Source: Mytilus edulis (Eukaryota). Taken from it: a DNA stretch of 47,732 bases. A program made the position numbers and the translations under genes. Where the stretch lies: the NCBI RefSeq assembly GCF_963676685.1, contig NC_092353.1, positions 20,195,575 through 20,243,306 on the forward strand, in the 5' to 3' direction. Shown here in pieces: positions 9,841 through 16,800 of this stretch (positions are counted from its first letter, which is position 1; every line of letters starts with the position of its first letter). Below the pieces are notes generated by a model that had not been told where the DNA came from, did not search any database, and saw only the letters and a program-made list of their open reading frames with translations.

Positions 9841-10481
9841 GGGCATACGATACAGTTACAGGGGAGGTAATGACGTTGCTAACGTAAAATGTTATTTTCG
9901 CGACGTCAAACTGTGACCTATCGGGAAAAGATGCATTTTTCGACTGATTTTTATCATTCAAACTGATTTAATTTGAAAACGATTGCATGGACCTTTTTTT
10001 AAAACGACATTTTGTTTCATTTTCCAGGGAAATTATGTGGACCAAATTTTATAAAACTGTAAATAGTGCATTTTTTTTAATTTTGATAAATGTACAGCAA
10101 AAAATGACTTTTTTTTCTCAATTCATGACCATTTGATAACTATGAGTAATTTCTGAATAAAAAATTCAGAAATTTTTAGAAGACTTAATACATATACAAA
10201 GATTACAAATTATTTAACAAAAAACAATTTGTGTTTATCTTTTAAAACAAACAAATTATGTCTTTCTTTCGAAAGGAAAAATACGGCCACAACTCCGCAT
10301 TTTGAGCAAATATACAAAATTTCGACCTCATTTAACTCAGAAAGTAGCACATGGAGGTATATATTTTTTTTATTACATATTTGATTTAATCAGGAAAAAA
10401 TAGCCTATATGGAAATTTTCATCAAACTGTAAATACAGGATCAAAACTGTATCGTATGCCCTTAACACGGAGCCTTGGCTC
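9841..10481. mobile_element. MITE of 641 bp with perfect 17-bp TIRs (GGGCATACGATACAGTT / AACTGTATCGTATGCCC), flanked by TTAA on both sides (9837-9840 and 10482-10485)
   Basis: Direct reading of the sequence. The interior is AT-rich and non-coding. A TTAA duplication is typical of piggyBac-like elements, and of some PIF-like ones. Confidence 0.7.
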
Positions 10482-10723
10482 ACACTGAACAGCAAGCTAT
10501 AAAGGGCCCCTAAAATGACTAGCGTAAACCCACTCAAACGGAAAAACCAACGCTCTAATCTAAATGAAAATCGAGAACCGCCAATTTAATTAGGTCTGTG
10601 ATTTTGTTTCTGAAGTAGAATATGTGGCAAAGTGATATATATGGTAGAAAAATCAACGACTTATTGACACTCTTAATCCTCTTGCAGCCGACCGTTTTTC
10701 AAGGTTGCATTTCATATTGAACA

Positions 10724-10860: not shown

Positions 10861-11984
10861 TGTTTAATTACACCGAATGTTAATGTACTAAAACGCATTG
10901 ATGATCGTTACAAGCGTCCAGTCGGATAGAGTATTTTTTGGCAAATACCACGGCAGAGAGGGTAAAAAAGGCATATCCTTTTAGCAAATACCCCGGCGGC
11001 GTTAAAAATGAACGATTTTCATTTGATAACAGTAAATTGGTGAAAAATACACTGGCTATTAACCAATCAAAACCCCGGATTCTTACATAAGGTGTAATTA
11101 GACGTAAAATACGACAGCTCGACGTCTGTGACGTAAATGCTAAACAACGACGTCACGACATAATGACCGTTACATTTGGGACCCATTGAAGTAAAACATA
11201 ATGATGTTTAATCCTCGGTCTTTTAATTGAAAGAATAACAGCACTGATGAGAAGCTTGCATAAATTTAACCATGGACATATGTGTCCCTCCGGCAGCAAG
11301 AGGGTAAAGAAACTAATGTGGATATTTTCAAAGGCCTTATTTGAACATTTTATAATCAGGTTTTTGAATTCCGCCATAGCATCATCAGTTCATCACAGAA
11401 TATAAGATAACTTGGTATAACTATGTAATCGAAATTAATGGACTTAGCAGTGTGTTAACACTGTCAACTATTGATAGGATAAAACAACAATTTTAAACAT
11501 GAAAGTACAAGTTAGTGCTTATTTTGTTACAGGTACGAAAATTTAGTGATATTTTGACTATAACATTAAATAAAGGCATCGCCGGGTAGTATACCGCTGT
11601 TCGAAAGTCATAAATCGACTGATAAAAAATATCTGGGCTACAAACTAACACTGAGGTAAACACATCAACTATAAGAGGAAAACAACGAAACAACAGAAAC
11701 ACTGAGGTGCAACAAAAAAACAAACGATAATGCAACACACACAGAGAAACAAACTATGATATATAACATCTACAATTTGCCTGACTTGGTACAGGACATT
11801 CTAAGACAAACTGGTGTGTTGAACCTAGTTTTGCGGCTAGCCAAACCTTGCATTTTTATTTCAATGTTAATATAACACTAATATGACAACATTACATGAC
11901 AGGACTCAAAACAAACAAATGCAAGAACATTCTGGACAGAAAAATACACAGATATACAATACAATAGGACATTTCCAATAGTAA

Positions 11985-12083
11985 AGGTACATGTACCAGG
12001 CTTATAATTTAATATACCATACGCGCGTTTCAGATCCAGATTTGATAAAGAAAGACAAACAAGTACAAAGTTGAAGAGCATTG
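11985..12083 (-). repeat. Inverted copy of the hammerhead-bearing repeat unit, with the ribozyme core deleted
   Basis: On the minus strand it reads caatgctcttcaactttgtacttgtttgtc...tctgaaacgcgcgtatggtatattaaattataagcctggtaca. This aligns to the 30608-30745 unit, but the word agcgtcactgatgagtcttatgtagac is missing. Confidence 0.5.
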
Positions 12084-13114
12084 ATGTTACCCTGTATACC
12101 ACATTGCCTCACATTCTCATTAAGAAAAAATTCACACACCTAATTAAATGGGCATTCAAAAAATCAGAATGTGAATATATATGTTCAAACTCTGTTAGGT
12201 CATTTTTTAGTAGCAATAAAAAAAACTATGTTAATTGGACATGCTTTGATACTATATATGCCCTTGAATTTTTACTAGATAACATTTTTGTTCGCTTTGG
12301 GGATTCCGTATATCGTCAGATTATCGGAATTCCAATGGGGACTAACTGTGCACCACTTATTGCGGACCTGTTTTTGTATTGTTATGAGTTACAATTTATG
12401 ACAATAATAAGCAAACACCCATCGAAACAACATCTGATAAACAAATTTAATAATACTTTTAGATATTTGGATGATATTTTGGCTATCAATAATGACGACT
12501 TCAGTATGTATATTAATGCAATTTATCCTGTTGAACTTACTTTAAATAAAGCTAATACTAACAATGACCACTGCCCTTTTCTCGATCTTTATATCTATAT
12601 CACTAATGGAAAGCTGAATACTAAAATTTCTGATAAAAGGGATGATTTTTCATTTCCTATCGTTAATTATCCGTTTTTAGATGGTGACGTTCCCTTGTCA
12701 CCATCTTACGGTGTTTATATATCTCAACTTGTACGATTCGCTCGTGTATGTAATAATGTTTGAGATTTTAACGAGAGAAATTTATGTATTACTGAAAAAT
12801 TATTACACCAGGGTTTTCGATATCACAAACTAGTCAAAACATTTACTAAATTTTATCATCGGTATAAAGACATCATTCGTAAATATAGCTCAACATGCAG
12901 ACTTCTAATACGTTCAGGTATTTCACATCCAATTTTTTATGGAAATATTCTTTATAAAGCACAACGGTGTCAGTATTCACCTCAGAAACTTACAAAACCT
13001 TTGAATAGACTTCTTAAGAAGGGATATAATTACGATACTGTTGTCAAGTCATTAAAGATTGCATATTTTGGCGTTAATATTGAGTCACTGATAAGGTCTT
13101 TGCATCGGAACTAA
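12071..13114 (+). pseudogene. 5'-truncated reverse transcriptase fragment: RT motif B (GIPMGTNCAPLIADLFL) and motif C (YLDDIL), then a thumb-like C-terminal region. One in-frame TGA at 12761-12763
   Basis: ORF 12071..12763 continues in the same frame after the single TGA down to the TAA at 13112-13114, giving ~347 codons. The N-terminus, including motif A, is absent. The ORF starts exactly at the junction word gttgaagagcattg. Confidence 0.7.
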
Positions 13115-13392
13115 ACACATTTATTCTAAAAACAGTTGTTGGCATGATACGGGTTATGTTCTTCTCATATATGTTATGATACTAAACCCCTAACGGGAAG
13201 GATTGTGTCAACATATTCATATGTTGAAATCATAATCTTTCAGTCAGTTTAATTGAAGTCTGGAGCTGGCATGTCAGTTAACTGCTAGTAGTCTGTTGTT
13301 ATTTATGTATTATTGTCATTTTGTTTATTTTCATTGGTTACATATTCTGACATCAGACTCGGACTTCTCTTGAACTGAATTTTAATGTGCGT

Positions 13393-13740
13393 ATTGTTAT
13401 GCGTTTACTTTTCTACATTGGTTAGAGGTATAGGGGGAGGGTTGAGATCTCACAAACATGTTTAACCCCGCCGCATTTTTGCGCCTGTCCCAAGTCAGGA
13501 GCCTCTGGCCTTTGTTAGTCTTGTATTATTTTGATTTTAGTTTCTTTTGTACAATTTGGAAATTAGTATGGCGTTCATTATCACTGGACTAGTATATATT
13601 TGTGTAGGGGCCAGCTGAAGGACGCCTCCGGGTGCGGGAATTTCTCGCTACATTGAAGACCTGTTGGTGACCCTCTGCTGTTGTTTTTTTATTTGGTCGG
13701 GTTGTTGTCTCTTTGACACATTCCCCATTTCAATTCTCAA
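13393..13740 (+). mobile_element. tRNA-derived SINE-like element, copy 1
   Basis: A D-arm or A-box-like word ATTGGTTAGAGG and a B-box-like word GGGTTGAGATCTC near the 5' end. It is ~75 percent identical over ~330 bp to 31494-31830. The shared tail is ...cattccccatttc(a/c)attctcaat. Confidence 0.5.
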
Positions 13741-14019
13741 TTTTATGTCCCAAATTCCAAAAAAAAAGAAATGTGCCAAATATGGCTAAGGTTGTATATA
13801 TTTGGGATAAGAAAACCCTTAGTAAATAGAATAATTCGTACTTTTGAAAAAGCAAATGTGAAACAAATGACCATAAAGTTGATTTTCATGTCAACACCGA
13901 AGTCGTGTCTAACAAAAGAATAATAAACTGTTATCACAGAGATATGTCTCGCCTTTTTGTAATTTTGATAATGCAAATGTTGAAATTAGAATAGCAATAC
14001 TTTAACATGTAAGTTATGC

Positions 14020-14400
14020 AAATATTCAAAGTCGATGAACCATGACTGAATGAACATTGACTGAAAGTACATGGCCAAACAATCTCCATGGAATGAGATA
14101 TGCCAATGCTTATACAACTGCATACCAAATACCATTGACTCATTATAAGTTGTTCCCTTTAAACAAACCTAAACACAAACATTAACTTGTTTACGTAAAC
14201 TATGTAAAAGTTTAAAGTCAATGAACCATGATCAGGGATGGGGTTATATAATCTCCATGGAAACGATACTTTCAAATGTCAATACATTTGTATACCAAAT
14301 ATCATTGATTTAACATTAGCAGTTCCTCTTTAACTGATCTAATCACAAACTAATACATGTAAACTTAGCAAAACTGTTTTTTCCCTTTATCGGAACACTC
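14020..14400. repeat. ~190-bp tandem repeat x2 (…atctccatgga(a)…ataccaaata(t/c)cattga…)
   Basis: Two adjacent, similar units. The related sequence is at 16555-16800. Confidence 0.6.
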
Positions 14401-14574: not shown

Positions 14575-15060
14575 GTTTAAAAATCTATATCCTATGTAAT
14601 TATATTTGACGACTCTACTAAATAAACTCACCATAGAAACCAGGATTGACATTTTCGTCTAAAAAAAGTCTCATCAGTGACGCTCGAATCCAAAAAAGTT
14701 AAAAAAAAAAATCAAAAAAAAATCCAAATATTGTACGAAGTTGAAGAGCATTTAGACCAAAATTCCAAAAAGTGTTGCCAAACACAGCAAAGGTAATCTA
14801 TTCCTAAGGTAGAAAAGCCTTAGAATTTCAAAAATTCAAAAGTTTTGTAAACAGTTAATTTATAAATATAACCATATCAATGATAATCTATGTCAGCACA
14901 AAAGTGCTGACCACTGGGCTGGTGGTACCCTCGAGGAAATAAATCTCCACCAGCAGTGGCATCGACCAAGGAGTTGTAAATAAACTCACCATAGAAACAG
15001 GTTTATATTTACGGCAGACACACGTTCATCTCAAAAACACTCATGAGGTTGGTAATGGGG
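14575..15060 (-). repeat. Degenerate inverted copies of the hammerhead-bearing repeat unit
   Basis: The minus strand reads gagcgtcactgatgagac...gaaaatgtcaatcctggtttctatggtgag at 14640-14700. A second copy, with its core mutated to cucaugag, lies at ~14977-15055. The junction word gttgaagagcatt occurs at 14744-14757. Confidence 0.4.
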
Positions 15061-15299: not shown

Positions 15300-15580
15300 T
15301 TCGTCCCTCTTTCGTGACGAATCACGGTAAAAATTCTTGCCAAATGACGTTAACGGTAATTTTTTATGCATGACGATAAAATGTACACTTTCTTTTAGAC
15401 GATACGAAAATTGACTGATTTTGACGAATCAGGTAAAAATGTTCCCCGAAAATGACGGTAACGATAATTATTTGAGACCTCTGACAAATCACGGTAAAAA
15501 TTTAACCAATTTGACGCTAACGGTAGCTGAAAATTACCGTTTGACGCCTGACGGTAAACAAGTAAAGGGCATTACTAATT
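15300..15580. repeat. Minisatellite, ~58-bp unit x4-5 (tgacgaatcacggtaaaaat...gacgttaacggtaatt)
   Basis: Direct reading of the sequence. The ORF 15421..15630 is a translation artefact of this periodicity. Confidence 0.7.
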
Positions 15581-15779
15581 TACTACCCTCACTCGTCAAG
15601 TTGAAGAGCATTGGGGACCAAAATTCCTAAAAGTTTTGCAAACTACAGCTGAAGTAATCTATTTCTGAGGTAGCAAAACTTATTATTACTTAGTAATATT
15701 GTGTAAACTTCGTGTGCAAACGATTAACATGATAAAGTGAAGTGAACATGACTAACTTTTATCAAAACACGTTTCTTCA

Positions 15780-16554: not shown

Positions 16555-16800
16555 AAACCAATCTTCATAGAAATAAGTTTAGCCAATGCTAATACCAAAT
16601 ATCATTGACCTACCACTAGAGGTTCCACATAAACTGACCTTATCAAAAACAAAAACATGTTAACTAAGCAAAAGTTTCAAAGTAAATAGGCATTGACTGA
16701 GCTAGAAATCTTCATGGAAATGAGGTGTGCCAATATTTATATAACTTCATACCAAAAATCACTGACCTACCACTAGTAGTTACCCATAAATTAGCCTAAT
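16555..16800. repeat. Two ~120-bp units related to the 14020-14400 repeat
   Basis: The shared words are gccaatgctaataccaaatatcattgacctaccact and cttcatggaaatgag. Confidence 0.5.

Follow-up and report, generated by a model that had tools for sequence, protein, structure and literature searches.

Here we report the analysis of a retroelement remnant, and of the hammerhead-related unit that adjoins it, within a 47,732-nt stretch of DNA (contig NC_092353.1, positions 20,195,575 to 20,243,306, forward strand; "the window" means this whole stretch), which is AT-rich, with 30-40% GC, and contains many repeats. The list of its open reading frames (ORFs) includes a plus-strand ORF of 230 amino acids (aa) with a TTG start at 12071..12763, and the same frame continues beyond 12763 to a TAA at 13112-13114, interrupted only by the TGA at 12761-12763. 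An earlier interpretation, made from the letters of this DNA without database searches (the sequence-only reading), had described this frame with its single TGA, as well as reverse transcriptase (RT) motifs B and C, and both descriptions agree with our data: GIPMGTNCAPLIADLFL and RYLDDIL are present in the ORF and occupy invariant columns in an alignment of 28 family proteins. The segment 12088..13114 (plus strand) is the coding remnant of a Penelope-like element (PLE), assigned below to the Naiad clade; it comprises the C-terminal ~342 RT codons, beginning with motif A ('TLYTTLPH') and including the stop. Beyond it lie a 632-bp 3' untranslated region (UTR) and the 3' terminus of the element (13115..13746, plus strand, ending ...ccccatttcaattctcaattttat at 13746). 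Parts of a mussel hammerhead retrozyme flank the copy on the minus strand, namely a 3' part that runs from tcaatgctcttcaac to ...ctttactatt on the left (11977..12087, aligned to the intact units 30341-30743 and 31826-31960) and a piece of retrozyme body on the right (13747..~13915; blastn of 13749-13911 vs 30606-30446, 71%).

This arrangement is very probably the result of an antisense insertion of the Naiad copy (12088..13746) into a pre-existing retrozyme, with the unit lacking a hammerhead ribozyme (HHR) representing the disrupted target, because the two retrozyme halves rejoin colinearly. When the Naiad copy is removed, the reverse complement of 13747-13930 joined to the reverse complement of 11977-12084 aligns straight across the junction, and the rejoined halves are colinear with the intact units of the window, with two public copies and with the published consensus of Mytilus galloprovincialis. 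The splitting of an opposite-strand retrozyme thus accounts for the head-to-head position of the HHR-less half-unit and the ORF. The sequence-only reading had correctly located such a unit next to the ORF on the minus strand (it extends from ~12087 to 11977 and lacks 28 nt including the ribozyme core), and had taken it for an inverted terminal-repeat fragment; it is replaced here by one half of an interrupted retrozyme, the other half of which lies at 13747..~13915. At the 5' junction, alignment to contig L009 revealed a TTGAT microhomology of the flank with the RT sequence (12081-12085), and a possible target-site duplication of 2-3 bp is formed by TGT at 12085..12087 and (T)GT at 13746-13748. 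A longer duplication of 8-9 bp (ATTGATGT/ATTTTATGT) was considered and rejected, since ATTTTAT belongs to the 3' end of the element according to L009.

The adjoining unit was characterized by its recurrence in the window. The word caatgctcttcaac occurs at 12070-12083 and 15600 on the minus strand and at 30612 and 31828 on the plus strand, and a copy with one mismatch is found at 14740 on the minus strand (five matches vs 0.6 expected by chance). As the sequence-only reading had stated, hammerheads follow two of these copies (30.6 and 31.8 kb): type I motifs at 30663-30706 and 31879-31922 scored 24.8 and 31.5 bits, respectively, below the Rfam gathering cut-off of 34, and at the gathering threshold Rfam gave no match in the whole window. 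The 11977..12087 unit lacks 28 nt (gagcgtcactgatgagtcttatgtagac) containing the ribozyme core and has no Rfam hammerhead match. The intact reference retrozyme (30341..30743, plus strand) is 83% identical to the published M. galloprovincialis consensus and starts with the nucleotide that follows the predicted self-cleavage site (gtc^tggc...). It runs ~40 nt beyond the next cleavage site, and a common 3' end (...gataactatt) was observed in the copies at 31.9 kb and 12.0 kb and in L006; these features fit an RNA intermediate whose 5' end is set by the ribozyme. In M. galloprovincialis, non-LTR retrozymes form repeats of 350-390 bp, with ~5,000 hammerheads in the genome (PMC7229834), and their consensus holds ...GGAATTTTGGTCCTCAATGCTCTTCAACTTCGTA...CTGATGAGTCTTTTGTAGACGAAACGCGCGTC (Cervera and de la Pena 2020, PMC7229834 supplement). 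A scan of metagenomes for a 28-nt word of the unit returned just two contigs, both of them ordinary retrozymes with retrozyme body upstream of caatgctcttcaac. Judging by these alignments, the adjoining unit is a mussel non-LTR retrozyme, a membership that holds for the intact copies, and caatgctcttcaac is internal to the retrozyme rather than a natural junction, as the published consensus and the two public copies run through it. The sequence-only reading had treated this word as a junction preceding the hammerheads, and also as the exact beginning of the ORF. The latter is an artefact of the TTG start: the frame is already open from ~12009, and RT homology to near-identical copies begins only at 12088.

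The RT remnant has many relatives. A search with its conceptual protein returned 4,728 homologues, among which P0001 is the closest (tblastn to P0001 aa 94-435, 95% identity), and at the DNA level the window copy is 97.4% identical to L001 and 97.5% identical to L009, i.e. it diverges by ~2.5% from copies of the same family. It is equivalent to residues ~661-1001 of the conceptual ORF of L002 (1,002 aa), and longer relatives reach further toward the N-terminus (PTMYWLPKLHK, PADKAANNIIVVC, GPKY). The claim of a 5'-truncated PLE RT remnant is upheld, with homology starting at 12088 and with Naiads as the relatives. Two lesions were found in the coding part by comparison with contigs of the same family, namely the TGA at 12761..12763 and, near 12218, the in-frame loss of 3 nt. 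The TGA codon is TTA (Leu) in L001, its closest relative, and the column is variable, other relatives having N, S, D, T or I and the family consensus 'x'; the TGA is therefore, on this comparison, a young nonsense mutation of a former Leu codon, as had been suggested from the sequence. The window Naiad copy is likely dead, and functionality of anything at this locus is unlikely.

The 3' UTR of the window copy is colinear with L001/L009 at 97%, and the 3' end of the family, set by L009, corresponds to 13746 in the window. Colinearity extends at 67-69% identity to L002 (3472-4069) and L003 (2522-3130), so that these ~600-bp 3' UTRs span families whose proteins are just 70-79% identical, with near-invariant blocks such as gtctggagctggcatgtcagttaactgctagtagtc and ggttgttgtctctttgacacattccccatttc. 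This conservation, as far as the alignments go, suggests functional constraint on the Naiad 3' UTR beyond the selenocysteine insertion sequence (SECIS) element described below. In the window copy, the corresponding SECIS region (~13165-13235) is degenerate: 8 nt (TATGATGG) of the 5' arm are deleted at 13174 and the 3' 'GA' is also lost, leaving a broken hairpin without a SECIS match.

Assignment of the window RT to the Naiad clade relies on the relatives, which retain the regions missing from the window copy. Naiads are PLEs with a unit of 3.4-4.4 kb and without canonical HHRs (PMC8557442), and their diagnostic features are an N-terminal GIY-YIG nuclease, CxC and GxKY motifs, a DKA motif that replaces DKG, and, 8 residues after it, a conserved Cys (Craig et al. 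2021, PMC8557442). The relatives' contigs contain a single frame of ~1,000 codons with the order CX4CxxC finger, GIY-YIG core, KR-rich block, CxC, GPKY, DKA, and RT. In L002, L004, and L005, the segment IIYLIT-C-x-C-GIQYVGETG ... WIKKLQ..PLGLN, which contains GIY/YVG, R, H, E, and N motifs, lies in frame upstream of the RT and is followed by the KR-rich block, CxC, GPKY, and PADKAANN...C, while CNC/UNC/CEC, GPKY, and PADKAANN are present in L001-L005 and L008. Homologues of the relatives' nuclease (E values of 1e-22 to 1e-7) carry Pfam PF01541. The sequence-only reading had proposed looking for a GIY-YIG domain downstream of the RT. No ORF with nuclease motifs follows the window RT; the nuclease is N-terminal in the relatives, all of which end, together with the window copy, at the same TAA after the RT, and its absence from the window copy is owing to 5' truncation. 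L002 also contains a 55-bp direct repeat with a spacing of 4,029 bp, which is consistent with a tandem or pseudo-LTR (pLTR) junction and falls inside the published unit size. An AlphaFold2 model of the relative P0002 (mean pLDDT of 77.5) was compared with the PDB using Foldseek, and ranks 1-17 were all telomerase RTs (E values of 2e-10 to 1e-6), followed at lower ranks by DRT2, retron, and group II RTs, LINE-1 ORF2p (3e-5), and R2 (4.5e-4). Telomerase RTs ranking first is the expectation for a PLE, which argues against a LINE or LTR retrotransposon origin. In P0002, ~83 residues (D246 to G329) separate RT motifs A and B, a distance that may correspond to the longer, IFD-like spacer of Naiads. 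Based on motifs, predicted fold, and homologues, the window RT is assigned to the Naiad clade.

Beyond what was observed directly, namely the homology, the boundaries, the split target, the clade-diagnostic motifs of relatives, and the predicted fold, a mechanism of integration can be proposed. By analogy with other PLEs, a nickase would have opened the target site, an older mussel hammerhead retrozyme on the opposite strand, and the RT would have copied the element RNA starting at its 3' end. Synthesis or joining may have halted about two-thirds along the ORF, the 5' end being joined at the TTGAT microhomology and the target being left split into 11977..12087 and 13747..~13915. The 28-nt core of the left half-unit could have been lost before or after the insertion, in either order. 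The TTA-to-TGA change, the 3-nt deletion, and the 8-nt deletion that breaks the 3'-UTR SECIS would have followed the insertion.

Several observations weigh against the reading of the locus as a Naiad copy inserted into a retrozyme. The retrozyme flanks are old, sharing 70-84% identity with other copies, and the retrozyme's 5' part can no longer be recognised past ~13915. The TGT duplication alone is too short for significance, so that the insertion call rests on the colinearity of the flanks. The family-model searches returned nothing: the Pfam RVT_1 (PF00078) model, proposed as a check by the sequence-only reading, and the GIY-YIG model gave no match to the window ORF, to eight relatives (RVT_1 at E<=1 for both) or to the 1,002-aa L002 protein, NCBIfam gave nothing for the relatives' nuclease domain, and sequence-profile searches of the PDB with the RT and nuclease alignments found no relevant match. 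As these searches were empty, the domain calls rest on the fold search, the motifs, and the PF01541-carrying homologues; given the fold result, the failure of RVT_1 is a matter of low model sensitivity and not evidence against an RT. Finally, both Naiad 3' ends of the window touch a retrozyme within ~8 nt of the same site. The second of them belongs to a strongly 5'-truncated Naiad 3' UTR fragment (31445..31833, plus strand, 75% identical to 13362-13741), which ends ...ccattctcaat with the last 5 Naiad nt missing, where the retrozyme reads cctcaatgctc. Through the common CTCAAT, this fragment is fused to a retrozyme 3' part (31826-31960) that bears an HHR, and no retrozyme body is found upstream of the fragment. 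This second junction hints at more than chance, be it microhomology, site preference, or co-mobilisation. Microhomology-guided priming, template switching, and chance are all possible causes of the two junctions, and two cases cannot decide among them.

A mechanistic link between Naiads and retrozymes would take one of two forms, either a site preference of the Naiad machinery for (c)tcaat/attga(g) through pairing of the Naiad RNA 3' end (...CUCAAUUUUAU) there, or chimeras formed by template switching during retrozyme mobilisation by the Naiad RT. It would account for both Naiad 3' ends lying so close to one word and for the CTCAAT shared at 31.83 kb, a chimera moreover predicts the missing upstream retrozyme body seen at 31.4 kb, and retrozymes have been proposed to depend on PLEs (PMC7229834; bioRxiv 10.64898/2026.07.22.740005). 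We nevertheless regard such a link as improbable: it draws on two cases whose break points are ~8 nt apart and in opposite orientations, simple insertion fully explains the case at 12-13.7 kb, nothing unusual marks the two other public retrozyme copies, and the 3' ends of Naiad and retrozyme show no similarity. A weaker possibility, added to the selenoprotein reading given below, is that Naiads, which lack HHRs, prefer hammerhead retrozymes as integration sites or recombine with them via the shared CTCAAT. Still less credible is the architecture proposed by the sequence-only reading, a canonical hammerhead-bearing PLE in which the unit without an HHR derives, as an inverted fragment, from the element's pLTR. 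Inverted 5'-truncated copies beside an upstream pLTR are indeed frequent in PLEs including Naiads (PMC8557442), and at 31.83 kb an HHR-bearing unit comes immediately after a Naiad 3' end. However, an Rfam scan of seven Naiad loci (E<=1) detected no HHR, these loci have no similarity to the retrozyme by blastn, and Rfam found no HHR in the Naiad 3' UTR of the window, so that the predicted combination of RT with hammerhead-bearing terminal repeats is not upheld, an outcome that the sequence-only reading had itself named as refuting it. L002, L003, and L009 share one 3' terminus that adjoins unrelated DNA, the tandem junction of L002 lacks such a unit, the other half of the unit sits on the far side of the RT copy, and the published retrozyme consensus is uninterrupted through caatgctcttcaac. 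The antisense insertion of a Naiad copy into a retrozyme accordingly remains the preferred explanation of the locus at 12-13.7 kb.

Analysis of the relatives also revealed a pattern of in-frame TGA codons that provides the family context of the window copy. TGA is the sole stop codon that breaks their long ORFs (950-1,006 codons in L002, L004, and L005), TAA and TAG being absent, and every such TGA falls on a conserved cysteine. Five TGA codons are present in L005 (166, 259, 292, 1153, and 1567), located at CX4-U-xxC, at the Cys before GIY, at the first Cys of CCHH, at U-x-C, and at DKA+8. Four each are present in L002 (613, 706, 739, and 1603) and L004 (8582, 8675, 8708, and 9980), and at least two in L003. 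In the window's own family, four samples have TGA at DKA+8 (L001 335-337, L008 1178, L009 559, and L010 180). The database proteins P0121-P0123 have W at three Cys columns of the nuclease where non-recoded homologues have C, and TGA was therefore read as Trp in these entries. Many other called proteins (among P0001-P0120) start at MKVPTMYW or MYW (435 and 430 aa), just past a TGA, and one homologue is labelled as a protein of a bacterial metagenome-assembled genome (Candidatus Thiodiazotropha), which is probably host contamination.

In five families, a SECIS-like hairpin of the form ATGA-N12-AAA...N12-GA lies 54-143 nt past the TAA stop. It appears in the minimum-free-energy folds of L001-L003, whereas for L004 and L005 it was located with an anchored motif analysis, and its helix 2 contains compensatory changes according to an anchored pair table, which is better evidence than the MAFFT/RNAalifold analysis of the five SECIS segments, as the latter misaligned two segments with longer loops. 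The Rfam SECIS_1 model scored 28-32.3 bits, compared with a gathering score of 35, in five loci at the coordinates of the hairpin (L001 1832-1896, L009 2056-2120, L008 2675-2739, L003 2563-2630, and L002 3514-3578). Taken together, TGA at DKA+8, the sister families with up to five selenocysteine (Sec) codons, and the putative SECIS tip the balance modestly toward the family of the window copy being a selenoprotein-encoding Naiad of mussels. The window copy itself holds none of the Cys-position TGA codons. Its TGA at 12761 could be thought of as a Sec codon in a recoded, functional ORF, given that TGA does occur at conserved Cys positions in the family and that a putative SECIS follows the stop; this is almost certainly not so, since the codon is Leu (TTA) in 97%-identical relatives at a variable, non-Cys site, and the copy is without the first ~660 codons and has a broken SECIS.

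Additional repeats were noted elsewhere in the window. Older Naiad-like RT fragments, matched weakly, lie on the minus strand at 10412-10654 and 11306-11476 (tblastn to P0001 aa 91-161 and aa 19-64; E values of 3e-4 and 5e-5), the nucleotide identity of 10580-10646 to 12088-12153 being 80.6%. These pieces are inverted relative to the 12088..13746 copy, with ~570 bp of extra DNA between them; they were considered as an inverted partner copy and rejected, being far more diverged and separated by unrelated DNA. A partial retrozyme at 15598-15687 on the minus strand breaks 8 nt downstream of the recurrent word (caatgctcttcaactt|gacgag...), and next to it, at 15330-15597, are short 'taccgt(c/t)a'-like repeats. 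Self-comparison of the window identified further dispersed repeats, 10464-10577 vs 30846-30958 (inverted, 83%) and 14292-14373 vs 16592-16673 (80%).

The feature in the window is ordinary transposon debris from two already-described element types, and the value of its analysis is mainly corrective: an RT beside a hammerhead repeat is insufficient to call a hammerhead-bearing PLE. Naiads escape the Pfam RVT_1 and GIY-YIG models altogether, and gene callers either break Naiad ORFs at a TGA or translate it as Trp. The Sec recoding is family context and not a property of the window copy, and it is the only part worth follow-up. If confirmed, Sec-encoding Naiads would have a wider distribution and heavier recoding than the four described families indicate, the only known Sec-encoding transposable elements would extend from clams and spiders to mussels, and thousands of 5'-truncated copies would spread SECIS-bearing 3' ends genome-wide.

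Comparison with known systems places each part of the locus. The retrozyme units of the window are 78-85% identical to the M. galloprovincialis consensus, including caatgctcttcaac and the ribozyme, in a unit of ~360 nt, whereas the copy that adjoins the RT is split by a Naiad and has lost the 28-nt ribozyme core. With canonical endonuclease-containing (EN+) PLEs (Penelope/Poseidon, Neptune, and Nematis), the elements studied here have in common a telomerase-like RT, a GIY-YIG nuclease, and 5'-truncated, tandem, or inverted insertions, but canonical EN+ PLEs have a C-terminal nuclease, DKG, and pLTR hammerheads, in place of the N-terminal nuclease, DKA, and lack of a hammerhead found here. The relatives share with the Naiad clade (PMC8557442) a single ORF of ~1,000 aa with N-terminal GIY-YIG, KR-rich block, CxC, GxKY, and DKA preceding the RT, Cys or Sec at DKA+8, and a tandem unit of ~4 kb; the lack of a canonical hammerhead, frequent 5' truncation, and abundance in bivalves are likewise common to both. 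The window copy differs in comprising only the last third of the ORF and the 3' UTR, and in having a retrozyme as its target, compared with the reported bias for (TA)n microsatellites. Selenoprotein Naiads have been described from clams (Naiad_Scon and Naiad_Mmer) and spiders (Naiad_Sdum and Naiad_Smim), with three or four Sec codons (PMC8557442). The relatives share with them TGA at the Cys before GIY-YIG, at the first Cys of CCHH, at a Cys of CX2-5CxxC, and at the Cys of DKA+8, as well as a SECIS-like hairpin after the TAA stop. They differ in having up to five TGA codons (L005), in a TGA at the first Cys of CxC, which is not among the reported positions, in the distance of the SECIS from the stop (54-143 nt here, 1-21 nt as reported), and in the host, which is apparently a mussel rather than a clam.

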